This document shows positions 1,761 to 43,900 of a DNA stretch of 64,000 nt, piece by piece. The stretch comes from Psammoneis japonica (Eukaryota): positions 496,001 to 560,000 of the forward strand of contig QPGO01000019.1 in NCBI GenBank assembly GCA_008632985.1, written 5' to 3'. Made by a program: the position numbers and the translations under genes. Numbering within the stretch: the first letter of the stretch is position 1; every line of letters starts with the position of its first letter. The notes under the pieces were generated by a model. It had not been told where the DNA came from, did not search any database, and saw only the letters and a program-made list of their open reading frames with translations.

Positions 1761-2252
1761 TCGCCAGCAAATGTCTGTCGCCCGCTGTTGGCGACGACGA
1801 ACAGCGTAAATGTCATGCCTCGCATTTTTTATTGCCATCTACATACTGTGGCGCCACTTTATCAACATTGGGGTTAATGTTCCACGGTTCGTTAGCTTTT
1901 TATATTTTAAAATTGATGATTCTTTTTCTTCATTTTAATGTTTTTGAAGAACACTGAATTACTTGCAGTATCGTGAGATGACATATGCGTAGAATGTTCG
2001 CCTTCAACTACTACAGTGCTACCAACGCTAGCCGTTCGATTCCGTTATTGAAGCTGTCATTGCTTATCCCGTTTATTCATTATTTCACAAATCATGAAGA
2101 TCAAATGGCTTCACTCGCTGGCGCGATTATTCTTTGAGCGAGCATCATCGTGCGACGTTACCCGTATCCGTATCTATCATAACATGGGTGTCGTCTCACT
2201 TTCTTGCACATCGAGCACGAAAGCCGCATTGATCGATCAAACCTACTGAACG

Positions 2253-5200
2253 ATGAAGATTGTCTCTTTCACAGTCGTATGTGGCTGTGCACTGCTCGCA
2301 TCGCTTGCCCTCTCAGGAGTGAGAACGAGCTGCGCTTCCGAGGTCAAGCAGGATCACGACTCCTTTCAATTTCCCCAGGATGATGAAAAAGTCGCTAGCA
2401 CTGACGCGGGGAGTGGGGAAGCCAACACCGAGAATGGTCATGAGGTAGACTGGTCATGGCTGATGGAAGCAACAAACAGCGAAGATGCTGATCATTGGCT
2501 TCGTTTTCTCCAAGAAGCAGGTGGAGGAAAATCAATGAGTTTGTTTTCAGAAGCTCCGACACCTCCTCCTGCTACTGTCTCTCCCACGCGGACGTCTTTG
2601 GTAACTGTCTCCCCAGCTCCTTCATTTGCTCCAACCCAGCCTTCGACAGGGGAGTCGAGTCCTCCTGCCACGTCGCCAGCTCCATCCTTTGCTCCGACGC
2701 AGCCTGGCGACGAATCGAGTCCTCCCTCCACATCGCCCGCTCCCTCCGATGCTCCGTCTCCTTTGACTTCGATTCCTCCGACACCACAAAATGGCAGCTG
2801 TGTGGTGGATCTTGATGGTGTTCAGTCTGCTCTGCAGGCACTTTTTGACAGGGTCGCAGTCTTTCGGGAAAATGAAATTCTCAACAAGAATGTGCCCTTT
2901 TTGGGTTCCTCTATGAACACGTTGATTGGTGGAGAAGGTGGTGGTAGTATTGATGCCGTTCTCAATTTGACCACTTTTGTAGAGGAGACCTTCCAGGGAA
3001 AGGATATTGTCACGTGCGATGAGCTAGAAACAGAACTAGCCTCTTATCTTGAAAGAGATGGAATGATTTCGACACGCCCTTCAACATACTGTGACGGCAC
3101 GAATGGGCCAGTAACCGTAACCGTGCCGCCGGATGACCCCAATGGCAAACGACTGAACTTTTGCTCCGAAATCAAATTTGACAGAAAAACTACTCTCGAC
3201 GGCACCAACCTCTTTGCTGCCACTGGATCCTGCATCGAGCTCGAAACTGATGACGCCGAGGATATTACTTCCTCCCTTGTTTTCGGTGCTGAGCTTGTCA
3301 TTAATCGATTCTTCTCAGAGGATCGCGTTGCTCTTGATCCCATTGAAACATCCGTTAATCTCACGAACGGTACTCCTGATGTGTCTCTATTTTTGGGACT
3401 ACTGAATTTGGAGTGTACGAAGGACGTGACCGCGGATGCATTTGCAGCTTTCAAGCTTGCATACTGCGTGAGCGACTGTACGGGCGAAGGTATCCCAATC
3501 GAAGAGGCCGCCTCCTTTTATCTACAGTATGGTGGCGACTATAGTATCGAGGGCGTCTGCAGTATCGGCGACCCATTTCCAGGCGTAGAACTCACTGGGG
3601 AAGGCGGAACCACATTTGTTAACATAACAGAGGATGACATCTACTCTGGGACCGCCGAAATTGACGTGAGGGATTTGGAGAATCTCAAGGATTTCTTAAT
3701 ATTCTGTCCAGAGGACGCACTTTCTCTTCTTCGAAGGACAGATAGTACTTTGATTCGGACACAGCAAAACATCGCGACGGAGCTAAATCTTCCTCTGACG
3801 AACATCATGTACAGTGAAATGCTCAGTACGGGTTCTGCTATCGTTAGTCAGTTCTTTCCATTCTTCGTGAAATTCCAGGATTTTGACAAGCGTGCTGGTC
3901 GAAGCCTCTTTCTCTCCGCGCGGAATGTCTTCAACGCAACCAGCGGAAGCTTCAAACCCTCAAAGATGTTGGAATTATACATTGTAAGAGATGTAGCTGA
4001 AGACATGATGGTAAACCCTGATGATAGCGCCGCCGTTCGAGAACTTGCCGACCAAATGAATGGAGTTTGTACAATCAAACTGCCTGAAGCGCTCCCCCAA
4101 GACGCTGAAGCTTTTAGAGTCGCCCTAGCTACAGGAATCGACTCCTGTGGAATCAAGACATGTAGAAAAGATGATTGTACGTTTGATAACACAACGGCAG
4201 AAATCTATGGCTGCGAGTGTGACTTGGTGGTCGATCTAATTCCAGACGCCGCAGACGGACTGGACCGACTCACAATCGCTTCTGTGGTTTATCGAGGACA
4301 ACAGGGAGAAGATCCACAGGACGTGCAGTTGATTGGCTTGTATGAAGTCATGGAAGAATTGCAAGGTCCTACTTCACTCTTTGAGTTTCCGTTGAATCAG
4401 CCAGTCACACCGGGAACGGTTCCGCGCTTTCGCACTTCGCAAGAACTTGTAACAAGTACGGATACGGCGTTGACAAACAAGGCTTACACGAGTATCGGTG
4501 TTGGCTTCAGCTACGTACAAGAAACAGAAATGGATCCGAGTCGTTTCGAGTTCGAAGTGACGTTCGTCCGAACTGCAGATTTCCAGACCGGATTCGCTAC
4601 ACGTGCCAGGGTAGGTGACCTGGAGAACATTCGGCAAGTGGATAAAGACACCCAAGCAAATACCACCACCGCGTCCATTATCGAGGCAAATTACAGCGCA
4701 AGTCTTGGAGTAATTCTCGCACCAAACGAGAATGAACAGATAATTGTGTTGGGACGAAACTCCTGCGACAAAATTAAACCTGAAAATGCAACAGAGGAAC
4801 AGAAGCTCACGTGCCCTTCTAATGCGACGTCTCTAGTTATTGAGTATTTCATTGAAGAGACATCTTTTTCAGAAACTTTGAATCTTCCAGTTTATTTCGA
4901 GCAGTCCCCGACTGCTGTGTTAGCATCCTCCCTTGCATCGCTGGGCGACGACGTCGTGACTCTTAACACAACGATGACAGGTGCCTCGGGAAAATTGATG
5001 GTAATTAAGTTCGATTCGTCGATCAGCCGTGTGAAACTCTTTGTTCCAAAGGATTGCATTGATCTGAAGACGGAGGAGATCAAGAAAAATGTTCTTTTTT
5101 GTGATGTTGAGAGGGAGAAAGTTTTGGTTCGTTCCAACGTGTACGGCCTGCAAGATCAAGATCTGTCTCGAAGACCATTCCAGATTACTGTCAAACAGTC

Positions 5201-8200
5201 GTCAATCGATGCTGATGTTGAGGTTAAGGGGACAGAGAAACTGGTTGGAACCGCTGGACCCGGGTGTGTCGAGGTAGATGCAGGATTGGATTTTTTCCTT
5301 AGGGGAGACTTGAGTTTGTCGGTCGGTACGGGCGAGTACTTGCCCTTTAACGATTGGCTTATTGCAGTCTCTTCGTTGTTTCAACCGCTCAATGTTGGGC
5401 GGTACATCGAGGGTTTTCTTGACATTTCTTCCACTTTTCAACGTGAAAGGTTTTCCGCATCGGTGCAACTATTGCCACCCTTCAACGACTATCCAGGCTC
5501 TACCAACGACGACATAGAGTTCGAGAACCCTCCGTTCGAAGTCGACTTTGAAGGCAAAAACAGTGACCCAACATTTATTTTTGACATTGATCTCCCTGGG
5601 GGCATTACCAATTTGACTTTCTCAGATGCCGTTTCTAGCTTCTCGAAAGCAGTGTCATTTGTCGTCGGCGATCGTGACATCAATTCTACGTTGGAATCAT
5701 GCACAGGGGGGTTGCTGTCAAATAAGCTGGTTTCCTACCAGATTCCGCGTGAGTAGGAGATTTCATGATATTGCCAATGGGGGTGCGAAAACGAAGTTCT
5801 AAATCTTGGTCTTGTCTTTTTGTTCACAGTTATTGGGACCAGCGCATGCAGTGAAGTGGACTTTCTCCAAGTCCTTGTAAACGCGGCTGACGCACTGACC
5901 GCAGAGGTGGAAACAGAGGCTCGCGAAGCAGAAGAAGCGGCAGCCGCACAAGATGATGTAGCCGCAGCGGCAATTCTCACAAAGCGGACGCTGTCGTCTC
6001 TGCAGATTAAACTTGAGACTTTGCTCACCGACGACGTTGGAAAGCCTCCTGTTGTCGAATTGGGAGCTGACAATGATGGGCTGCTTTTGAAACTTGAACT
6101 AAGCTGGGAATTTGTTGAAGCAGAGGCATTGAACGTTGATTTGACCGACATCCTTAAAGAAAATCGTCCCGATAGCAATGCTACCGAAATTCTCGGCAAG
6201 GCTCTTATTCCTTCTGATGGAGCTGCTTTGATCGAAATCAAACGCGAATTGACCGTTCGACTAGACCTACGAGTGGAGAAGTCTGAGGCCGGCGAGGTGA
6301 ACGCTTTCATCAACAGCGGGCCGATTTTCACTGCGACGTTTCTCTCAAACGGTACAGATTGCTTTGAACCTGATCTTGGAGCTCTATGTGGCACTGCCGA
6401 TGTGGAGTTCTCTGTTGGGCAAAATGATTCTCCGCTGACGCTCATTATCGGCCTTACCGATGAGGAACTTATTCCTGACGATGCATCTGACCTTGTCAAC
6501 GAACTCAACGCATCCTTTTTTGGGTTGATCAACGCAGATATTGACGTTGAAGTACCATTAGTCGAACTAGTCGCCAAAGTCACTTATACAATCTCTAATT
6601 TGGAAGCATTTTCCGAAGATTCCATCATTCCGGAACAAGACTTTGTCCTTGATGTCACCAAGGGTCCGATTGAAAGACCTGATGTGTTTGAACTGTTGTA
6701 TGCACAACGAGTGCGATTCGTGGAAGCGTTGGACGTTGCGTTCCGAACAACAGAAGCCGCGCTATTCAGCCCCAAAGGTGCAATTACACGATACCGCGTG
6801 CCATTCATCCAAAACAGTGTTGGAAGTGTCTTGGGGGCAAGTACCGACAACAACATTCTTTCCCAAGTCCGTCGAAAGATTATACCAAAGGTCAGGGACT
6901 CACTTGCCGAAATCGATGTCGGTGAGACTGAAACTGTGAAGGATATCCTAAATGATGTCCTACAGGTCACTCTGTTGAGAAACGACTTTCTCCAGGCCAA
7001 CGGAGATGTATCGGTTGAATGCTTTGACCGTGGCATGGACAACAGTGTGGAATGTAATGGGACCGACCCAACGACTGTCATGTGGACTGTTCCATTAGGA
7101 CAAGACTTAGAAATCCAAGACTATCTTCTCAATTTTGTTCTTGTTGATGAGTTCCCGTTGGAGATACCACTTAACGGCGATTCCATGCAACCGCTGAACG
7201 TGTCGTGGGCGTTCAATCTAGCGTTTGGGTTTGATGACGAAGAAGGATTTTTTCTCTATACTTTTCCGGAAGAGAACAAGACAGAGCTTCTGATTGAGAC
7301 AAGGTTGAATGTTGGAAAGACAGAACTTGACGCGTCTTTGTACTTCTTATCTGCCAAAATGAAAAATGTTCGGTTGATTGTCGGCGCTGCCGTCTTTGTC
7401 GACGTTGTTAATCTGTATCCTAAGCCTCGTGGCGGTCTGTTGACTCGTGGTGATTTTCGAAAGACCATTGACAAGAGCAGCATGTTCAAGGTCAAGGCTC
7501 TTTCAATTTCGGGTCTTGAATCTGATGTTACAGTGGGGCTCGATGGAAGCATACCAACTGCGTCGTGGATTCCAACTCTAAATTTTTCGGTTGAGGCTAT
7601 ATTCCGCACAATAATCGGGGAAGTTAGCGAATCAGATATTGCGGACTTTTTTGTTGTCGAGCCAGGGCCCGATTATGCTCGCATCTCAGCCGTCCAGCTC
7701 GACCAGGGAAAAACTGCTGAATTGGTTTCTGGTATTCTTGAGAAATTCACAAATCAAGGAGGTGATGGGGTTTTTGATAGGGTTGTCGCGCCACTCGTAC
7801 CTCTCAACACGGCGCTACCAGGTATTTCAGATATTGCTGGTCGGGAGATTACGGTGTTGGATATTGCAGATATATATGTGGGAAAATCATCGGGCAGTGA
7901 CACAGTTCGGACAGTTCTTGATATCTATCAGGGTATGAAGAATTTAGCTACGAAATTTGCTCAGTTTACCGGAGGCCTTCTTCTAGCAGAAGAGTGTAAT
8001 CTGCTAGACGGCTTTAGTTGCACTGGAGGGCTTCCCGATGAAGCCGACGTCCTCCGAAGGAAATTGAAAGCATGCGATGATAATCCAAACAGCCTTGAAT
8101 GTACTGCCCAGTCAGTTTGCGGGCTTGATTTTCCAGTCTTGTCCAATCCACTGTCCGCCCTTGAACTATTGAAGGGAAGAGATATTGTGAGTTGTAGTAA

Positions 8201-11200
8201 TTCTCTGTGATTTGGTAGTTTTGCGTTTAGCAAGTGCCTGACATTTTCCTCTTCGGCTTCCACTACAGAGACTCGTGACGTTTGAATCTCCACTGGTAGA
8301 GTTGGCTTTTGAATTCGACTTCCAGACTGTTGTGTACGTGCTTGGGAGCATTGCTATGGTGTCACCTTCTGTGTTGCATAATGGCATCTTACCGCCCGTT
8401 TCCTCTGATCATACACAGCTACACGCCTCCAACGGTTAGGGTAGGGATTGAGTTCGAGTTCGTTGCCACTCTCCAGGTTCTCTTTGCTTTGGACTCGAAG
8501 GGTGTCCGTGAAGCGATAGAACAGGAAGCTCCCGGGAAGGCTATTAACAGTTTTGCTTTGATAGACACGTTCAAAGGAGTTGACATACCAATGATTACGC
8601 TGACTGGGCTTGTTGCTATTAGCGTCTCTGTTAGCGCTTTCTTTGTTGAGATCGGCGTTACTGGTGGTGTGCAATTCATTGCCGTCATTGACTTGTTTGA
8701 TCCCAAACCTGAGCAGTCTGGTGGACTCGTTCGCCCCTACGAACTGCTTTCTGCGGGAACGTCACCGTTAGAATGGTTCGAGTTCTCTCTGCAGATCAAT
8801 CTCTTTATCAAGTTCTACGTTAGGGTAATCATCGATTTGTTTTTTGGGAAGATAGAGATCTACAAGATTTCGGAAACATTCACGGTAGAACTGCTTCCTT
8901 CTCGAACCTGGACTCCAGAACTTCCTGGATCAGTAGCAGAAATGGACATTACCAGTGGACAGCTTCTGCTCAGAACCGCGGGTGTCGCAGCGCTTGACTG
9001 CACGAGCTTAGGGGGAAGCGTCGGGTCGGAGACAATTGAATGTTTTTCAGTTAGCGAACCGGCGGTGTTTAACTCGTTTCCTAACTTGAAGCAGATCGGT
9101 CTAGCTTCTTCAGGTGGAAATATTACACTGCGAGACGTTCAATCAGTGACCACATTTAGCTCCGGGCTGAATGCACTAGTACTTAACTACAGTGCGAGCG
9201 GCGCGGAATTGATGGGTTCGGTATTTGTCGGTGAATCGCAAGTCTTAGCTGGTGCAAATGCCGTGAACTTTGCGAGTCTTTCCAATGGAAAACTTATGTT
9301 CCCGCAACCCGAAGAACAACTGCTATTGACTACATTTGGCAATTGCAACAGCGAATGGAAACTGGAGGGGCATTCAAATCTGTTGGTGAACGCAAACGAA
9401 GTCAATGGTGGATGCAAAATTGTTGCTGATGGAGGCAATTTCAACGATGCGCAGCTGATTGTCGACTTTGGCTATGAGGGCTTTGCCGAGTGCCAGGACG
9501 GCAATGAAGTAATCCTGACTAGAGCCTCGGATGATCTTACTAGAGTGGTGATCACACGTCCAGATCTCAGTGGTGAGGTGATACTTGAAGTTAGCTCGAA
9601 GTTTACAGATTTGCAGATCAAAATGTCACAGTGCAACGACAAAGTTCTTGTAGAGGGAGTCGCTGGAGAGCGTATCGAGAAGATCATCCCCTGTGAGGAC
9701 TTCTGCAGTTGTCAATACTTTGAATTTCCGTGCCGATGTGATTTAGAAGTGTGTCCGGCTTGTAGAAACCTTACCAATCTGTGCGATTGCTACATCCCCC
9801 CGCCTAAATCTCTCCAAACAGTGAGCTCGACGCTTGAACCTAAAGATATTCTGGTTCCGACTACGAGACCTACATATCTGTTTACGAGTAGACCGTCCAT
9901 GGCTCCTTGCACCACTCCCGTGACGCTTCAACTGCTTGGACTCGGTTCTGTCTCAGTTTATGGCGGGGGCGGCAATGACACCATTGCTATCGGAAGTGCT
10001 TTTGTGGGTCTCGATGACATCCCCTTTCCTGTCATTGTCGACGGCGGTGACGAGGATGACTTTCTGATTGTGGAGGATTCTAAAGGATCAATTTCTATGA
10101 ACCCAAAAGGGCAACTCAATTCCGGTTCCTTAGCGGAACTTGACGCGGATCTCGGCGGCATTATTCGTCCCGACATTACCTATTTGGATTACGAGAACAT
10201 TGAGACTTTGAACGTTTTCCTGGGAACGAATACCGGAACCTTTGAAGTAACATCAACAGCACCGGGTTCCCGTCCGGTCGTAAAGATGAGTGCGGGTGTC
10301 AGCAATGTCTACGTTTCGAACACGCAAGGGGACATAGAAGTCTCTGGCGGTGATGGCGACGACAACTTTTTCGTTACCGGTTTGGCAGCAGGAGCGATTG
10401 CCACCGTGCTGGGTAGCGATGGAGACGATGTCTTGACATTGAGCAAATCGAGCGAGTCGACAGAGGGAGTTACAATGTTCGAATCCAATGTGGTGCGGTG
10501 GAGTGGAGGAGCTGGCAACGACCTTGTTCACGCATTCTTCAATACCCAAGGGCAGTACGATCTTGAATTGTATGACGATGTAGACGGGATCAACACAGCT
10601 CGTATCACTTGTGACAGCATAAAACCGTGTAATGTTTGGAGCAGAGAGAATTTTATTGCGAGTACGACTGATACGTCCGGTTCTATTGCTACCCCCGAGA
10701 AAATCACCATTGACCACCAATCTGCCTATGTCCATGCAGTAGCTCTGTTTTTGAGCGGTGGTGAGAATAAGGTCTTTTTTGATGACACGGTTGCCACGAT
10801 GGATGTTTTCGGTGGCCCTTATAGCGATGGTGAGTATGTCTTTCATTCCTCACTGTTCTCCCACATTATTATGGTTACTCACCTCCCTCCGCCGCGTCGT
10901 CTCCAGTTTTTTACATTGGACAAAAATACAGCTCACCGCAAAGTCCCGACGATGGTCCGTTGGATCTGATGGAGACAGCAGAAGGAGACTATCTCTCGAA
11001 GGGCAATTCCCATCCGGTCACAATCAATGGCGATTCGGGCATTGACACATTCAATGTTCTCCGGAATACACAGGTTCTTGATTTGAACGGCGACGCCGGT
11101 GACGACGTGTTGGTAGTTGAATCTTTCCTTGCTTCGCCTACCGAATCTGAGATTCCCGACTACGTTGTGAACTCGTTGATCGATTTCGATGGAGGCACCG

Positions 11201-35033: not shown

Positions 35034-37197
35034 CTAATCACGGTTGAAACAGCTCTTGTCACAGTTCTTAGCAGGTGCCGACACCTCATACGGAGAATCC
35101 ATGGAGTTTAAGAATTGCTTTAGCTGCCCTCTCCATATAATAGTAGAGTCGCAGCAGTGTGGCCACTTTATCTCAAGCCTTTCAGGAATTCCATTCTTGC
35201 CTAGACCAAAGACTACGCGATCGTCGCTTCCTCCCTAACAAGAGTGCAAGCAGCACGCAACAAGTAGGACGTGAGATGGCGATTCCAGTAATCGCGAAAC
35301 AAAAAAGGACAGAAGAAAATCAACAAACCTCCGCATCTGTTTCATGGAGCAGCACGCAACAAGTAGGAGTGAGAGGGAGATTCCAGTCACCGCGAAACAA
35401 AAAAGGAGAGAAGAAAATCTACACACCTGTTTCGTGGCTTTGTGTGCTGACGACACGGAGCTGCGTCACTGTTCCGTTATTTTTCGGGCCCATTCCTGAT
35501 GAAGTGAGCTGCAAAATTGCTCCAATCGAAGCAGAAGGACTTGCTTTCTTGGCAAAGCTTATCGCAAAGAATCTGTTTCTGTTCTGTTTCATGTCCCCCA
35601 GTGTGTTGCGGAAAATCACAATAGACCCAGGCGTATAGGCGAGAATCACGTCACGATAACCATCGTTATCAAGGTCAGCAACCGTAGGAGCAAGAGCACG
35701 GATATAGTCCCTTTGATGTTTGAATATGCTGCAAATGGCGACTTGATTCTTGTTCTTCAGCCCTCTGCAGACACTCGCCGGCAGATAAGACTCGCACGAA
35801 ATATTTTTCGTCGTATCTTTTCTGGTTGTTGGAATACCTTTGCAATAGTTCTTGGGTCCAAAGCCATAATTGAGAGAGTTCAAGTCTCCATAGTTCATAT
35901 TCTTTCCATTGAAATCCTTCAGCCGTCGCCAAGTATTCTTTGACTCAAGCTCATATATGCCATGGCGTCCTGGACGGTTAGAACAAACCACAAGCATGTC
36001 TATCTTTCCGTTCAGATTGAAGTCGGCAAATCGAAAACCAGCGGCACCCTCCTTTCCACACATGGGACTAAGATCCAGATGCGAGTCCGCGTCTCCCATG
36101 AATAGTAAGCAAAACCGACGCTCGTCATCGTCCAAGAATCTCTTACACCTCCCTTGGCGAGTAGATGAAAGGTAGAAATCTACCCGTGTCTTATAGAGGA
36201 TCGCAACATCGGGCAAGCCGTCCAAATCAAAGTCTTGACTGCCAATGCCATTTGCGCGGTAGTAGTCCCTTACACCATTAGGAACTTCCTGTGCAAGAGT
36301 ACGGCGCTGCAAGTTGTCTTCCTTCGAATCAAACTCGTAGACACTGCGACTGAGCCTTGGGAAATTGTTGCAAATACGGTTTTTGGAATCAGGTTTGCAT
36401 TGCGATGATACAATCAGCTCCTTGGCATAGCCATCCCCATCCAAATCTGTCAACAGTGCTACTCCTGCAAATTCTTGAAAGTTGCGGGTGGGACTGCTAG
36501 TGGCGTTGAATACGCGGCCATTAATATTTCGGTAGAACAATCCTGGGATTACTTTGTCATCCTTTCGTTCAACGGTAAGGGTTACAACATCAAGGAGTCC
36601 ATCTCCGTCGGCGTCAAACCAATAATGATGACGTCCTCGCTGATTTCCATCTCTGTTCCTTCCGTGTAGTCCGGCTTTGAACGCAGCATCTCTTCCGCCG
36701 ACAAGGCGATACCCGAGTTCCGAGTTCTTGTCCTTTTGTCCCCAATAAAGAATGTTATCAAAATCCTTGCTGTTGCCCACTCCGTGTCCTCCACCTGTCA
36801 CCTGAAAGAAGTCTTTTATACCATCACCATCAATGTCAAGAAATGCAGACGAATGTGAATCGAAGCATTGAGCATCATTGGAATAAACTGAATCGGACAT
36901 CTTCATGAAACCTTTGCCCTTGTTGACGGGATAGTATGTGCCGTTGCTACCACTACGAATCGCAGCATCCCAATCAGCCATACAACCACCAGGTTTATCA
37001 CCAACGGCGGACATGCTTGGATTTGACCAACGATTCGTTTCATAATGGAAACTAAGAAAGTGATTGTGGTGGTACAAGTCCATTACACCATCGTTGTTCA
37101 AGTCTGGCACCAAAGGTGGTCCATATCTGAAACTTGGGATTTGTATTGCGAGCTTCGACATGGGTGCTTCATCATATCCAGGGAGTAGCTCAAACAT
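35034..37197 (-). CDS. FG-GAP repeat / ASPIC-UnbV (CRTAC1-like) protein; exons 37197-35427, 35336-35329, 35234-35034
   Basis: Seven DxDxDG-type loops (DLNNDG, DIDGDG, DADGDG, DLDGDG, DFDLDG, DFNLNG, DLDNDG). The ASPIC-type C-terminus SIGAIL..TQLRVV..HETDAEGGSDDRVVFGLG..LEIKWP is completed by splicing. The start codon is uncertain because no signal peptide is seen. Confidence 0.8.
35249..35438. repeat. Imperfect ~99-bp tandem duplication forming two homologous introns
   Basis: agcagcacgcaacaagtagga...gattccagt...cgcgaaacaaaaaagga.agaagaaaatc begins at both 35249 and 35348. Confidence 0.9.
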
Positions 37198-38319: not shown

Positions 38320-40940
38320 CTATGAAGCTGGCTCCGCAAAGAGCAAAGCAAGCAACTCCTGTGTGATGGATCCCAACGCTCCATTTGTCCCCGGGCAATC
38401 CGTCATGACGCAATGAAAACACCTTTTACGAGGGTCCTCATCCGTCATGAGAGTCACCGTCATGTAGAGAGGTTTGGGGTGACGATTGGCAGGAAAGGAA
38501 ATGCAGGGCAAGGTCAAGGCCGCGTAATCCCCGACGCGACTGCTTGCTGTAGAAGAAGAAGAAGCTTTGCTTTCCGTGTCTGTGCTTGGGGTTCTCGTGG
38601 ACGACGAATCTTCCGTCGTTTCCTTGGCGCCATCCCTTTCGGACGAGTCGCGTTTGAGAGCCCGGCCAATCATTTCGAACAGGTTGGAGAGATTGTCGGC
38701 CTCCACGATACTAAAGATCGTCATGCCTTCCGCCTCCTCTTTGGTGAGTCCCGTTGCCTTGAGGAAGAATTCGTTGCCTGTAGTGTTGAGATATAAGAAA
38801 AGAGTCCGTTATTTTCAGTCTGCAACTGAAATGATTTCTGGAACAAGAACGACAACAAAACCCACGAAACTTACACACAACAATCTTTCCAGTTGGCGTG
38901 GCAATAAACTGCGGCACATTGGACGTCAGGAATACCTCTTTGTAATCTAGATGAAAGTTGGGTTCCAAGGAGTTGCGCTCCTGTCGTTTTCGTTTCTTCT
39001 TCCCCTTGACGACAACGTCAGCGTGTCCGTGAGGAGGATCCACAATCCCCTCTCCTCGAACCACCGGCACGGTGGACGAGATGCTTGCGTCCGCCGCTTT
39101 TTTGTCGTCGCTGCCGCCGGCCGACGACCCCTTGTTGCTGTCTGTCATTTCTGAAACACTGGAACTCATCTTGTCTAGTGAAATATTCTGTCCACCAGGT
39201 CCTTCTTCGCCACTCGATGAGTCAGGCGATTCTCCATCGATGCGTCTCTTCTTATTACACGAACAATTATCTTGGTTTTTGTCCTCGTCACTGCCGGACG
39301 ACGCCGACACCTTGGCTGCTGCGGGTGCACTGCCATCGGTGAGGCTCGACACGACGCTCTCGGGATCCGACCGTGCTTCCTGGAGTGCCTTGTCTTCAGC
39401 CAGCTTGCACTCCTTGACGGTAAGGTCCAGCTTGGCCTGTTCGACAGCGGCTTCCTTTTCTTGTGTCGTCTTGATGAGGTGCTTGACGTAGTCAGCACAA
39501 CTGTGATGTAAATAAGCGGCGGCAAAGTGGTAAGACAACATAATATACAAAATACCAATCAAATCCAAAATCAATAGACATGATAACTCACGTTGTCAGT
39601 GTATGATACTTGCTCTTGAGTTCTACTCTCCATCCCCCCTTTTCAATACTGACGCGCAGCTTTTCAATCAATTCCGTAATTTTTTGCGCCCGCTTTTGTT
39701 CTCGTTCGTTGCGTTCTTTTGCGCTACCCCGTTTGCTGCCGTGATGCCGTCCATCCACCAATTGAACATTGCTTGGTGGAAGAGAGTTTGATGAGAGTGG
39801 TAGAATGGGATTGCTCAAAGCATTAACTTGCGGATGAAAGCCATTCACGGCCATGCCGTAATGGTACGAGTTGTTATCTTGCGTAATGGGAATGCCGTGC
39901 ATGCGTTGTGACTGAATAAAGTTGGTGCGCAATTCACAGGGTGCGTCAAACAAGAGAAAGGGCGGAGCAGCGGCAGCCTCTGTGTTCGACTTGTTGCTAG
40001 GAGACTTGACCTTTTTGTTGGTGGTTTGTACTTGTGGCGGTGGGGGTGCCAGTGGAGCTGGCTGGGCGGCAGCTGCCGGTGTTGCTCCCATTTGTTGTTG
40101 CAGCATGGACATGAAGCTGTTGCTCGCCGCAACGGTTTGAGTGACGTGAAGTAATGGATTAAACATCATGGGTTGGCCACCATTTGCTTGGTAAGGCGCC
40201 GACGATGGCATGGCAAGGGGATGGAGCTGTTGATGATTCGTAGCTTGTTGAGGTGCAAAAGATGACGAGGCTTGCTGCTGCTGTTGATGTGACTGTAGTG
40301 CTGCTTGGTACTGTGTGAGTTGCGGTTGCTGTGCAGTCGCAGCGTCGGATGGTTGTGCTGTTGCGGATACCGCAGCGGTCTTTGCTGCGGGAGCAGCAAC
40401 GGCTCCCAAGTACGCGTAGTCCTGAGGAAGGACAGTGTTTGCTTGAGCCACAACCGGCGCATACGCCTGAGCTGTTAGATGCTGAGGAAGGACCGCTGGC
40501 GAAGGACCAGACGAAGCTTGCTGTAGCTGTGTCAATACTGCAGGAGACTGCTGCGTCTTTGATACAAGCTGCTGGTACAAATGAGGTGGGAGAGTGAAGT
40601 GGTTGTTTGCCCATGCCGCTGCTGTTGTCGGATCTGGTATTGGGGCAGTCGGTGCTGCTGTATTCGCGGCTAGAGCCTGGACTGCTACAGGAGCCGGTGC
40701 AGTTCCCTCGCAAGCCGCTGCGGTTGTTGGTATACTTGTTGACTTTGGCTGTACTCCTTCCACTTGGAACGACGGCAATCGCATAAACCCCGGGCGAGCT
40801 GTTGTTTCCGTGTTTGGTTTGGCCGCTTTTCGTGTCCCCGCTGTTGCCGCCGACATTTCCGCCACGTCTTCTTGCCAATTCAAGAGCGACGAATCAAAGT
40901 CTGCGTTCAGCGTCAGGTCCATCTTTTCGTTTTCTTCCAT
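38320..40940 (-). CDS. bHLH-PAS transcription factor (diatom type), 3 exons
   Basis: Q/P/A-rich N-terminus. bHLH: RNEREQKRAQKITELIEKLR..KSKYHTLT|TCADYVKHL across intron 39591-39501. PAS-like: LDYKEVFLTSNVPQFIATPTGKIVV|CNEFFLKATGLT..MTIFSIV across intron 38874-38778. Confidence 0.88.
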
Positions 40941-43900
40941 GCTATTATTGTACTGTTGGATCCAGAATCTGTCAGAACTGTCTTACGATGTATCCATCAC
41001 CGATAAACCGAATGCGTGCCGTAACGAGAACTCTGAACAGTCAAAATAAGTCAATGACGAGGCTGAAGGGTGAGAAACAGTCTCGGAGCTTGATGATTCG
41101 CTGTAGTAGTGCAGCAGATTGTTTAGATCAGGCGTGCAAGAAAAAGTGATGTTGGTACCGGTATTGGAAAGTGCTTTCGCATCAATCAACAGAAAACGCA
41201 GATGCTCGTGATGTGTGGAGATTCAAAATGACAGATGTTTTGTGGGTGACCCACACCACTCGCAAGTCCCTTGACCTCACAATCAACAAAACAGCTGTTT
41301 CCTTCAACAAAACGAGAAAACAGGTGGCGGTTTTAACACGAATGACCGCACTCCGAGTCCGAAACAGCGAAATAAATCGCATACTCGGAAAACGAGAAGC
41401 ACGTGACGCATGACGTGTCTCTGACCAGCTGGCGAGTGCCACCGACACGACAGGAAAAAACGAAGAAAACATCAACAACCGTCGAGTCCAAAACACGCGT
41501 CTCTCACGATGAACACAAATTATTGTCATGCACAAATAACATACCTCTGTGTGTGTGATGAGTGCGCTTGTCAAAGTGATGCAATCTGCAACAGCAATAA
41601 GAGGAGAGCTTAGAGCTTGTAGATTGTGGTTCTTTTGTGTGGGTCGGGTCGTGAGTTGATTTATGGGCAGATGGCGATTGTTGAAGTGGCGCAGGAGTTC
41701 TGCTTATCATAGTACGCAAAAAATCGTATGTAGAATCTACGTGATTTTCGGTATGTTCATTCTGTTGAGAAGCAGTGACGTAAGCATTGCGAAATAAATA
41801 TAAAATATACATAATCGCATAAGTAAGTCGCAGAAGCAGCATGATGTGGCTTTGTCAGTGCAAGATTCAGCGTTGCAATCGTGAGGGCAACTCACCCATG
41901 CCTCAGAGGCTCGCGAGTTCCCTCATCTCAGTTTAGCTCCAAACGTCCACGCTGGAAGGATGACACTGGTCTGTCCCTGTGCCGATGCTAAAATCGACAC
42001 TCATGGTCCTGCTCCAATGGCACAAAAGCAGAGAAAAACACTCAGTGCTGTCGACTCGGCTGAAGACATCACCCGGTGTGCACGAGCTGGCTGTGCAATG
42101 CCTTGATGAGAAGATCAACTTGGTGCCAGCTGCAGCATGATTCAAGTTCTGCTTGCTGATTTTGTTGAAATTCATCCACGAAACTCAGCTCTGCATTTTT
42201 CGCACATGTGTGTTCACAAAACTGCACAAAATTTCCCTTTTCGGCACACCTTTGTGCCCGCACATGAATTGTCGCCAAAACAAAATGTTGGAGAGAGCCA
42301 CTGTGCAGTGCATCAGCACAAGTGCCTTGCACAACCTCTTTTTGATGGATTGCCTGTCACACACTGCAGGTGCCGGCGCACCTGCTGTGCGGCCCTTCTC
42401 CTGCTGCTTTGCTTTTGTGCTGACTTCAGGAAGTCTTGGCTGCACCACATGGTTGGCGTGAGAAAATCACATGATGTCATGCCACTGCAGCACTCTTCTT
42501 CTTTCTTGACATTGGCGCAAGTGTCAATGTGATGACTCGCTGTTGCTCTTCTGAGAAAGCTTTCCTCTTTGCCACAAATGCAAAAGACAAGGAGAGGCTT
42601 GACTCTCTCCTCAAAAAGGCAGAAAGCTTTTCCACATCCGGTGCACTGCTGAAAGTTTTTGTCAAGAACAAAATTGCAGGAGAAGAGACAGAGATTGAGG
42701 TTGACATTTGCAATCCTCACGTTGGGTGCAGCATGAACAGCCCCGATGATCGCAAATGTGAAAGCAACTTCTTCAGGAGGAGTTGTCATCAGAGAAAAGG
42801 AGGCATGGAAAGGCTCCACTTGTCCAGCGAGTTCAATTCCAACACTCCACTAGAAGGCCATCAGACAGTGGTGGAGCATGTCACCAAGGCTTTCAATGCA
42901 TCTGGTGGCTGGTGGTGGCATCATTGCCACTGGCAGCTTTTCAGCCAAATTGTTGGATGTTGTCTTGAGATGCAAGAACCGCCACAGGATTGGCAAGACA
43001 AAGGACAATGATGGAAGGGAAGAAGAAGGGTCCAGCCCCTTGGCAAAGAAAATGACAATGGCAAGGCCACCAGCTGATGACGACACATGTGACTGGAGAA
43101 GCCAACTGCATTTTGAGCCATCGGAAACAAACACACTTGTTGGTGGATGGCTCTTTTTCAAGAACGGTGCTGGCAATTTCAAAAAGATGTGCAAGAGCAC
43201 ACCAGCAAGAAATGGTCAGAAGAGCCACCCCCCACCTTGATGAAAAACAAGCTCAAAACAGTCAATGATGACACAGATGTCAATTTGGGCTCCCAGTTGA
43301 TGGCGATGACATTCCAGCAGCACACTGGCCTTGCCATCATTGCACCAGGATGTTGAAGAACTGCCACCCCCCTCTGTTGGCCACGTCACATGGAACAATG
43401 TCGCTGACAGAGCAAGTTGTTGCCAAACATGTCAGCAACAGCAGTGCATCTGTTTTGTGCTTGATTGTTTCCATGTGTGTGTCTTGGACTGCACCCCGCC
43501 AAAGCCACTGCACTCGGGCAATTTCTGGTGCTGGAATGCAAAGAATCAAAGCCGTCATTCACAAAGCACCATCAACATCTCATCCACAAATGCACAATTG
43601 TCGCAACCAGAAAATGTGTGTGTGGGCGGTGAGTGAAAGTGACTTTGTGAAAACATTGAGAGCATGAGAACAGCAGACCAATGAAGTTCTGCAGCAAACT
43701 TGCTTGGTCACAGAGCATCAGGGATGAGCTCAACAGGGATCACAGTGGCAACAATGGCGAAGATGATGTTGAGAACATGCTGGCAGAACTTGGCAGAGGC
43801 ACCTTTGTCACAGTTCTTGTCACTGGAGCCTTCAAGATGGCCACACGCACCACTGGTTGCTGTGCCAGTTGCATCATGGTGTGCCCTTTCTGTCTGTGGC

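Follow-up and report, generated by a model that had tools for sequence, protein, structure and literature searches.

A candidate new intron copied from its neighbour, with a predicted 8-nt micro-exon between the sister introns, in an FG-GAP/UnbV_ASPIC gene of Psammoneis japonica

To our knowledge, intron gains for which both the source and the mechanism can be identified are very few. In the potato RdRp gene, a tandem duplication across an intron-exon boundary made an intron that was detected in transcripts (Ma, Lan & Niu 2016, PMC4974935). The AGGT tandem genomic duplication model was re-enacted for vertebrate ATP2A1 (Hellsten et al. 2011, PMC3265369), and the Rogers-type form of this model has been reviewed (Yenerall & Zhou 2012, PMC3443670). 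Some introners carry a 5' splice site and take the 3' splice site from a target-site duplication (2022, PMC9860276), as the preliminary description of the locus reported here correctly stated. Tandem duplication of an intron within the same gene represents less than 1% of the single intron gains in Zymoseptoria (PMC4457414), and tandem duplication is one proposed source of the "novel intron position" pairs of Drosophila (PMC2891723). In the latter work, two introns separated by 32 nt or less were considered very unlikely to occur together in the same gene (Lehmann et al. 2010, PMC2891723).

In a 64-kb stretch of P. japonica DNA (64,000 nt; hereafter, the window), we found two adjacent and similar segments within a conserved gene. 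Our analysis of the sequence and its homologs shows a local intron copy at the DNA level that very probably made a new intron in this gene and left an 8-nt micro-exon between two sister introns; we hold this explanation as a whole with moderate confidence. The features are as follows, in the direction of transcription; slashes in the motifs given below mark splice sites.

35427..37197, minus strand: exon 1 of the FG-GAP/UnbV_ASPIC gene, identified from its open frame, Pfam and tblastn.
35427..35437, minus strand: A1, the exon-end copy of an 11-nt direct repeat, CCACGAAACAG, which codes for part of S-H-E-T and is identical to A2 at 10 of 11 positions.
35337..35426, minus strand: candidate new intron of 90 nt, phase 1, proposed from repeat and frame evidence.
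35337..35347, minus strand: A2, the intronic copy of the 11-nt direct repeat, CCATGAAACAG, the last three bases of which are the putative acceptor CAG.
35329..35336, minus strand: predicted 8-nt micro-exon, ATGCGGAG, whose residues are present in homologs.
35235..35328, minus strand: older intron of 94 nt, phase 0, removal of which joins the conserved tail in frame.
35034..35234, minus strand: last exon, 66 codons (GGSDDRVVFGLG...IKWPHCC...) and a stop codon, identified from its open frame and the tails of homologs.

Exon 1 is 1771 nt long; it starts with the ATG at 37197, contains 590 codons and the first base of an Asp codon, and its 3' end reads ...AGC CAC GAA ACA G. The Pfam search gave a match to FG-GAP_3 of 65 bits (cutoff, 26.9), and tblastn aligned residues 1-586 of P0001, the closest homolog (48% identity, 96% coverage), with positions 37197-35428 at 47.5% identity (E 4e-171). 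The start Met is common to P0001 and exon 1. The last exon begins with GGAGGAAGC at 35234 and ends with the stop codon TAG at 35036-35034. When searched alone, it matched UnbV_ASPIC with 21.8 bits, slightly below the Pfam cutoff of 23.4 and at profile positions 28-51 only; it was alignable with the tails of P0001-P0003, of which P0003 is a homolog with PF07593. The nearest Atlas clusters are also FG-GAP/UnbV_ASPIC proteins, and the host gene has both the FG-GAP repeats and the C-terminal UnbV_ASPIC region of this family.

A search of a set of 5.8 billion proteins with exon 1 as the query (lengths 339-1080) returned no protein of the same species. With the 66-aa tail (lengths 117-2000) and with residues 440-617 (lengths 30-338) as queries, 17 and 51 candidates, respectively, were obtained, none of them significant. 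A metagenome scan for orthologous DNA gave a single locus (L001), which was dropped; its identity was 31% over residues 18-136, its GC content was 31%, and its tail was unmatched.

The preliminary description, made from the sequence alone, had claimed that the two intron segments are homologous, and blastn supported this with an alignment of 73 nt at 91.8% identity (E 5e-21). The candidate new intron is composed of B1 (35426-35348), a 79-nt copy of the 5' part of the older intron, and A2 (35347-35337); the older intron is composed of B2 (35328-35249, 80 nt) and a unique 14-nt 3' end (35248-35235). The core copies B1 and B2 are 91% identical, with 72 of 79 aligned bases the same, and differ by seven substitutions and one 1-nt indel. 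Six of the seven substitutions are transversions, and an origin of these differences in TpA hypermutation was rejected on this ground. The identity between A1 and A2 has a chance probability of approximately 8e-6 per register. All of the coordinates and motifs claimed in the preliminary description, including the TAG at 35421-35419, are present in the sequence. The copy of the exon end at the end of the first intron is also real and gives the CAG acceptor, although it measures 11 nt and not 10 nt as first reported. The phrase "caught in the act", however, went too far: the copies are approximately 9-10% different, so the event need not be very recent.

Tandem Repeats Finder reported the sister-intron repeat with a period of 98, 1.8 copies, 90% matches and a score of 304, and this was the only array scoring at least 60 in the window. 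The core copies are spaced by 98 nt and the exon-end copies by 90 nt, and these unequal spacings of the two parts ruled out a simple tandem duplication of either 98 or 90 nt. As in a local or tandem duplication, the candidate new intron sits at a direct duplication, and both of its splice sites come from duplicated material; strict head-to-tail contiguity is lacking, since the upstream copy is without the 8 nt ATGCGGAG. The two spacings and the missing ATGCGGAG together mean that a second breakpoint or a template switch is needed. The same details bear on the idea that the 90-nt insert is an artefact of the assembly and absent from the organism, which we consider highly improbable. The copies differ by the seven substitutions and the indel, their 3' ends differ, and spacings of 90 and 98 are unlike what collapsed or duplicated reads, or juxtaposed alleles, would give at a 98-nt scale.

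Two minor similarities observed in this region were given no weight. The exon end and an intron segment form a 10-nt inverted pair (I4) that is 90% complementary, no stronger than the four other inverted pairs in 371 nt. The sequence ATGCGGAG matches the first 8 nt of the new intron at five of eight positions (family D3), which we treated as chance.

In our explanation, a 90-nt piece was placed into the coding sequence between ...ACAG and ATGCGGAG, so that 8 nt separate it from the donor site of the existing 94-nt intron downstream. Two parts make up the piece: the initial 79 nt of the older intron, in copy, and an 11-nt repeat of the exon sequence that directly precedes the insertion point; in this respect, the earlier suggestion that an existing intron was copied locally 8 nt upstream agrees with our results. 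With the intron copy came a GT donor, a pyrimidine-rich stretch and the CTCAC branch-like motif, which occurs in both introns. The copied exon sequence, which ends in CAG, provides an acceptor at a parent-like distance from the branch motif (33 nt from its A to the 3' end in the new intron and 37 nt in the older one). Excision of exactly 90 nt and of the old 94-nt intron would restore ...SHET-DAE-GGSDDRVVFGLG.... Both introns would be spliced; with no more than 8 nt between the two sites, their removal would probably be sequential. As for polarity, a copy of exon sequence stands at the end of the upstream segment alone, from which it follows that the upstream segment is the new one and the downstream segment the old one.

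The route may have been templated repair of a staggered break or two template switches during replication; in the latter case, synthesis would have moved forward by 8 nt over an AG microhomology and then back by 98 nt. We infer that a transposon or reverse splicing is less likely than templated repair or template switching. Reverse splicing was ruled out as a candidate, since the last 14 nt of the parent (35248-35235) were not copied and an 11-nt exon repeat flanks the copy; the insert is not a full-length intron copy bounded by its own GT and AG without a flanking duplication.

The flanking repeat also raises the question of whether both segments are mobile copies of the introner type with a target-site duplication, the older intron being an earlier insertion. 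The 11-nt direct repeat flanks the insert, ends in CAG and would supply one splice site in the manner of a target-site duplication; the insert brings the 5' splice site and the repeat gives the 3' site, as described for introners of Chrysochromulina (PMC9860276). However, each segment matched only the other in blastn searches of the window, in which all remaining matches were at most 15 nt long (E at least 0.26). Terminal inverted repeats are absent from the ends of the 79-nt insert, where none of the five inverted pairs is located, and the RNA fold is unremarkable (z -0.39), a value that likewise ruled out an RNA structure element. The 11-nt repeat is longer than the 3-9 bp given for introner target-site duplications (PMC9860276), and the absence of the last 14 nt of a parent located 8 nt away fits local templated copying. 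Mobile copies are accordingly a very unlikely explanation, and the analogy with transposons in the preliminary description was overstated with respect to the copies in the window, the inverted repeats and the length of the duplication.

To define the possible products, we enumerated all GT/GC...AG solutions with one or two introns in 35480-35200. The in-frame solutions comprised 11 single and 134 double ones, and only one of them, the combination of 35426-35337 and 35328-35235, reproduced SHETDAEGG. Double splicing in silico restored the ancestral coding sequence, with SHETDAEGG as in P0001; the predicted double-spliced junction is ...CACGAAACAG-ATGCGGAG-GGAGGAAGC..., and the product, ...SHETDAEGGSDDRVVFGLG...WP..., ends at the stop codon at 35036-35034. 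It had been noted earlier that inclusion of the 8-nt exon gives an in-frame tail and that skipping it shifts the frame. Both points held: joining 35427 straight to 35234 caused a frameshift with a stop after 17 codons. When 35426-35337 was retained, translation met the in-frame TAG within it. A homolog-profile HMM (77 segments) gave the highest score, 118.4 bits, to the two-intron product; the in-frame single-intron products scored 111.4 and 106.3 bits (7-12 bits lower), the frameshifted product 64.4 bits and the intron-retained product 62.8 bits. These results show that the conserved protein tail would be obtained by double splicing only.

The micro-exon would code for bases 2-3 of the Asp codon, followed by Ala and Glu (D-A-E). 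At this site, P0001 reads SHETDAEGGNED, in which D-A-E is identical, and P0003 reads SHETDWWGSKDD. Our homolog set consisted of 77 sequences spanning the micro-exon site. All four residue positions lost if the 8 nt are skipped (D-A-E-G) are present in 65 of these, with Asp (49/77) and Gly (61/77) each the most frequent residue of its column. Counted from the T column to the F of FGLG, the spacing is 11 in 55 homologs, as in the two-intron model; 10 homologs have a spacing of 12, 11 have 8 and one has 3. Because D-A-E is found in P0001 and the positions are kept in 65 of the 77 homologs, the 8 nt between the intron copies are ancestral coding sequence, and approximately 90 nt thus entered an exon at a point 8 nt before an existing intron. 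That the 8 nt arose as filler at the junction of a duplication was ruled out, since they encode the D-A-E of P0001. The segment has two features of a coding micro-exon (at most 15 nt): its context is CAG/ATGCGGAG/GT, with canonical AG...GT on both sides, and its residues are conserved. The DNA would retain the 8 nt even after they had fallen out of use, a consideration that counts against the micro-exon reading.

These comparisons also bear on the possibility that the micro-exon is gone and that the duplication merely lies inside one larger intron. This could pair the donor at 35426 with a GAG acceptor at 35231 (196 nt; product HET-GSDD, with four residues lost) or the donor at 35424 with the acceptor at 35235 (190 nt; product HET-GGGSDD, with two residues lost). 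Both options are in frame and keep the tail, and their products still score 106.3 and 111.4 bits against the homolog profile. However, the T-to-FGLG spacings that they produce, 7 and 9, occur in none of the 77 homologs, and the lost Asp and Gly are those commonest in their columns. The acceptor at 35231 is a GAG located 4 nt beyond a better TAG. The donor at 35424 reads GTGTAG, has a T at -1 and an A at +5, and overlaps the much better ACAG/GTGTGT, and the stronger sites give an out-of-frame single-intron product. We therefore regard a single larger intron as improbable.

With regard to the splice signals of the two-intron model, both acceptors, AAACAG/ in the candidate new intron and TTGTTAG/ in the older one, are the first AG past the CTCAC motif. 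The candidate new donor, ACAG/GTGTGT, is no weaker than the older donor, GGAG/GTTTGT, and the older donor must work because the gene needs the older intron removed to have its tail. Both sister donors depart from GTGAGT, the donor of four other likely or candidate introns in the window; this context consists of one intron with a conserved bHLH join (39591-39501) and three candidates, as the joining of open reading frames was too noisy for a consensus. The context of the new acceptor is purine-rich, with a pyrimidine fraction of 0.53 compared with 0.71 in the parent intron. The lengths of 90 and 94 nt are comparable to those of the homology-supported intron of the window (91 nt, 39591-39501) and of a 113-nt candidate. 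The very small size of the exon (8 nt) weighs against the two-intron model, as does the judgement on closely spaced introns in Drosophila (PMC2891723).

A rival reading for which these signals matter is that the 90-nt insert is disabling, being either unspliced or mis-spliced from the donor at 35426 to the acceptor at 35235, with loss of the UnbV_ASPIC tail. The product would be cut after SHET-GV, or would consist of SHET and 17 wrong residues, or the mRNA would be degraded. Retention leads to the TAG at 35421-35419, and the 192-nt skip leads to a frameshift and an early stop. The donors lie off the local GTGAGT pattern, the new acceptor is purine-rich, an 8-nt exon is hard to define, and the full-length product is matched by no same-species protein in the 5.8-billion-protein set. 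However, nearly all the signals of a working intron are found in the insert, whose acceptor is the first AG past the branch motif, and neither the 1771 nt of exon 1 nor the 201-nt tail contains a stop or frameshift. The DDR..FGLG and WP residues are intact despite the copy divergence of approximately 9-10%. By a rough estimate, which is weak evidence, a neutral 209-nt tail would remain intact over that divergence in approximately one-fifth of cases; the estimate is void if the differences arose by error-prone synthesis at the event. On balance, we consider a disabling insert unlikely, although less so than the other rivals.

If the preferred reading, a spliced intron made by local duplication, is correct, the locus is informative in several respects. 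The donor sequence, the insertion point, the 11-nt flanking repeat and the origin of each splice signal are all readable here, and the exon bases that existed before the event are fixed by conserved codons. If splicing occurs, then copying no more than the 5' four-fifths of another intron, with an AG taken from duplicated exon sequence, would be enough to make a working intron in one step, and two introns 8 nt apart could coexist in one gene. The cause of at least this gain would then be errors of repair or replication at the DNA level and not reverse splicing or transposons. The locus would also be a natural substrate for studies on the recognition of 8-nt exons.

More speculatively, the copying of an intron into a nearby exon, with a short repeat giving the missing splice site, may be a recurrent process, perhaps typical of diatoms; we hold this to be doubtful. 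It would yield sister introns separated by functional micro-exons. If such events are recurrent and spliced, local copying would be a regular source of introns whose DNA junctions are still readable, and the spliceosomes concerned would routinely handle exons of 1-8 nt. In a literature search, none of the best 10 of 47 papers, as ranked by title and abstract, dealt with diatom intron duplication with micro-exons; publication elsewhere is possible.

Among the described systems, the potato RdRp intron resembles the candidate intron in that a local duplication spans an existing intron/exon border and the new intron adjoins its parent; most splicing signals come from the parent, and one splice site was formerly exonic. 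Potato is the mirror image, however: the 3' border was duplicated, the parent contributed the branch site and acceptor, and the donor was exonic in origin. In our gene, it is the 5' border that was duplicated, the donor and branch motif are parental, and the acceptor would derive from the exonic repeat. The duplication at the present locus is, in addition, non-contiguous, with a skip of 8 nt, an 8-nt exon is left between the copies, and splicing is predicted.

The AGGT model shares with our proposal the one-step origin of an intron from a local duplication, the unchanged coding sequence ("precise" gain) and the AG/GT junctions. The classic model has a duplicated piece of exon turn into the intron, whereas here the intron body is a copy of the neighbouring intron, only 11 nt are exonic, and the spacings are 90 and 98. 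The fill-in of a staggered break is similar in that a short direct repeat (11 nt here) flanks the inserted DNA that becomes an intron. In the present case, the source of the filler can be identified as the intron 8 nt downstream, and the repair pathway is our interpretation.

With introners, the candidate intron has in common that the insert gives the GT, that the flanking duplication gives the AG, and that the mRNA would be unchanged after splicing. Introners form many-copy families spread over unrelated genes; their duplications measure 3-9 bp, and terminal inverted repeats are often present, whereas here one copy lies beside its parent in the 64-kb window, with an 11-nt repeat and without inverted repeats. 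Where new introns have arisen as duplicates of an earlier intron of the same gene, the new intron is, as in our case, recognisable as a copy of that intron; our copy differs in that it is partial, is separated from its parent by only 8 nt and is flanked by a repeat that records the junctions at the DNA level. Finally, the Drosophila pairs, like the sister introns described here, have two intron positions at most 32 nt apart in a conserved coding region. In contrast to those pairs, both introns of the P. japonica gene would need to be used in the same transcript.

The host gene lies on the minus strand and belongs to the FG-GAP/UnbV_ASPIC family, as do its nearest Atlas clusters. Exon 1 (1771 nt, ATG at 37197) encodes FG-GAP repeats (Pfam FG-GAP_3, 65 bits vs a cutoff of 26.9), and the last exon (66 codons) matches UnbV_ASPIC over the second half of the domain; scored as a lone fragment, it reaches 21.8 bits, just below the 23.4 cutoff. 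P0001 (654 aa), the nearest protein detected (48% identity, 96% coverage), shares the start Met of the gene model and has a similar C-terminal tail; no same-species protein or fragment was found in the protein collection searched. Two intron-like segments around 8 nt separate the two exons, and a reading of the minus strand confirmed all coordinates and motifs of the preliminary description.

Layout of the locus, read from the sequence
ends 35427, minus strand: end of exon 1, ...AGC CAC GAA ACA G
35426-35337, minus strand: upstream segment, 90 nt, GTGTGT...CTCAC...CCATGAAACAG
35336-35329, minus strand: 8 nt, ATGCGGAG
35328-35235, minus strand: downstream segment, 94 nt, GTTTGT...CTCAC...TGCACTCTTGTTAG
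to the stop at 35036-35034, minus strand: last open frame, GGA GGA AGC GAC GAT...

Tandem Repeats Finder reported one array at the locus (period 98, 1.8 copies, 90% matches, score 304), which was the sole array with a score of at least 60 across the full 64-kb window. The only real blastn match of each segment was the other segment (73 nt, 91.8%, E 5e-21); no further copies of either were found in the window, where the other matches were at most 15 nt long and at chance level. We consider an assembly artefact highly improbable. The two copies of the shared core (79 and 80 nt; 35348-35426 vs 35249-35328) were aligned globally and differed by 7 substitutions, 6 transversions and 1 transition, and one 1-nt indel. 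This spectrum is unusual for neutral drift, and the excess of transversions might stem from error-prone synthesis during copying.

Removal of both segments yields ...VSTQSHET-DAE-GGSDDRVVFGLG...IKWPHCC..., and the same region reads ...LSSLSHETDAEGGNEDRLIFGLG...VMWPHCC... in P0001 and SHETDWWGSKDDRIVFGLG in P0003, another homologous protein. Of 153 family members, 78 had a match to the final 150 residues of the model, and 77 covered the junction. A MAFFT alignment of these 77 homologs showed that all four D-A-E-G columns were filled in 65, three in 1 and one in 11; 49 homologs carried D itself and 61 carried G. The T column and the F of FGLG were spaced by 11 residues in 55 homologs, as in the two-intron model, by 12 in 10, by 8 in 11 and by 3 in 1. 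Since most homologs keep these columns, filler made by the duplication is ruled out as the source of ATGCGGAG; these 8 nt already belonged to the exon when the event occurred and directly followed ...ACAG.

A repeat search resolved the similarity into two parts with unequal spacing: the core (B1 and B2) at 98 nt and the exon end (A1 and A2) at 90 nt. The A copies were identical at 10 of 11 positions, with a chance of approximately 8e-6 per register.

Copies of the exon end
35437-35427, minus strand: A1, exon-end copy, CCACGAAACAG
35347-35337, minus strand: A2, intronic copy, CCATGAAACAG

The present layout is A1-B1-A2-E-B2-T, with E standing for the 8 nt and T for the 14 nt found only at the 3' end of the old intron. 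Because the 8 nt are old exon, the ancestral order was A-E-B-T, and the change is a 90-nt insertion of B1 and A2 or, equivalently, of A1 and B1. The upstream segment is the new one, as it alone closes with duplicated exon sequence. Its donor, T-rich stretch and CTCAC motif come from the parent, the downstream intron, and the duplicated exon end provides its acceptor CAG. In both segments the acceptor is the first AG past the CTCAC motif, 33 nt from the A of the motif in the candidate new intron vs 37 nt in the parent.

Plain tandem duplication was rejected, as A and B were non-adjacent in the ancestor and a second breakpoint skipping E would be needed. A reverse-spliced intron copy was also rejected, the last 14 nt of the parent, including its acceptor, being absent and a flanking repeat present. 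The insert is a partial intron copy plus an 11-nt repeat, the product of neither process. The earlier interpretation at the DNA level, a local copy of an existing intron, is well supported, although the spacings of 90 and 98 nt do not fit simple tandem duplication; the proposed exon-end copy is present and supplies the acceptor, but it is 11 nt long (10/11 identical) rather than 10.

Several other similarities were seen here. The spacing-90 similarity extends 8 nt beyond the 11-nt repeat (35415-35437 vs 35325-35347). Compared with the first 8 nt of the new intron, GTGTGTAG, ATGCGGAG agrees at 5 of 8 positions, which we took as chance; with the old donor, GTTTGTTG, it agrees at 6 of 8. The exon end CCACGAAACA (35428-35437) is 90% complementary to TGTTTCGCGG in the intron copies (35390-35399, also 35292-35302). 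Base pairing of the two close to the insertion point, in DNA or in pre-mRNA, is conceivable; however, the complementarity is probably due to chance, since it is no stronger than that of four other inverted pairs in 371 nt.

Two DNA-level routes, staggered break repair and replication template switching, would fit the insertion. In the former, the direct repeat of 11 nt would result from fill-in of a staggered double-strand break at ...ACAG^ATGC; the upstream 3' end would prime on the AG before the old donor (GGAG/GT) and copy approximately 79 nt, and the copied end would then be joined to the other break end. In the latter, the fork would switch twice: an 8-nt forward step at the AG microhomology, followed by a backward step of 98 nt. 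Templated insertions copied from flanking DNA have been linked to polymerase-theta end joining. In Daphnia, break-repair intron gains have been proposed to leave short direct repeats on both sides of the new intron, according to a review (PMC3443670). An introner, or transposon, origin would match in that the insert brings GT and the duplication brings AG, as described for Chrysochromulina introners (PMC9860276); however, it is very unlikely, given that the window contains no further copy, terminal inverted repeats are absent, the RNA fold is not unusual (z -0.39) and the repeat, at 11 nt, exceeds the range of 3-9 bp described in introners.

Every GT/GC...AG pair, and every pair of such pairs, from 35480 to 35200 was enumerated for stop-free passage from the exon-1 frame to the tail frame, which gave 11 single-intron and 134 two-intron solutions. 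Among these, SHETDAEGG was obtained solely from 35426-35337 plus 35328-35235. Joining the best-looking sites as one intron, 35426 to 35235, caused a frameshift with a stop after 17 codons, and retention of the upstream segment led to an immediate stop; the in-frame TAG previously placed at 35421-35419 is indeed there. Products were scored with a profile HMM derived from the segments of the 77 homologs.

Profile HMM scores of the predicted products
two introns with the 8-nt exon: 118.4 bits
single intron, 35424 to 35235: 111.4 bits
single intron, 35426 to 35231: 106.3 bits
frameshifted product, 35426 to 35235: 64.4 bits
upstream segment retained: 62.8 bits

That one larger intron is removed and the protein shortened is unlikely. 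Two in-frame single-intron solutions kept SHET intact, from 35426 to the GAG at 35231 (HETGSDD, spacing 7) and from 35424, a weak donor that overlaps the first, to 35235 (HETGGGSDD, spacing 9), but these spacings were found in 0 of the 77 homologs.

The parent intron must be spliced if the gene is to have its conserved tail. Several points suggest that the candidate new intron is in use: it is a near-copy of the parent; its donor GTGTGT is, if anything, nearer the GTGAGT of other introns in the window than is the parent's GTTTGT; its 90 nt are typical here; and there is no sign of decay in the gene, both exon 1 and the tail being open and the motif residues intact despite 9-10% divergence between the intron copies. 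Two window features were compared for size.

Other features of the window
39501-39591, minus strand: 91-nt intron, GTGAGT...CAG, joining two open frames and restoring ...KYHTLTT-CADYVKHL...
2250-5754, 5769-8208 and 8300-10967, plus strand: three very long open frames
8187-8299, plus strand: candidate intron, 113 nt, GTGAGT...TAG, joining the last two long frames

The 91-nt intron, which belongs to a glutamine-rich bHLH-like gene (38711-40982, minus strand), served solely to illustrate how large local introns are and which signals they carry. The frames at 2250-10967 look like exons of one giant gene.

Against splicing, the sequence around the new acceptor is rich in purines (pyrimidine fraction 0.53, compared with 0.71 in the parent) and the exon is just 8 nt long. 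Given spliceosome footprints, and because the 3' and 5' sites are 8 nt apart, the two introns would be expected to be removed one after the other. Lehmann et al. (PMC2891723) regarded the coexistence of introns at most 32 nt apart as very unlikely. A disabling or mis-spliced insertion is rather unlikely; on balance, we favor a local copy that splicing removes as a new intron, leaving an 8-nt exon.

Same-gene intron duplication is reportedly rare in fungi (PMC4457414), and the titles and abstracts among the matches listed in our literature search included no diatom case. The closest published case found is the potato RdRp gene (PMC4974935), in which a tandem duplication over an intron-exon border created a new intron with most signals from the parent. 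Both cases involve duplication at an intron-exon border and inherited signals, whereas the present one is a mirror image at the 5' border, where the duplication is non-contiguous and a micro-exon is left. The wider tandem-duplication model, which has been re-enacted experimentally (PMC3265369), also accommodates it.
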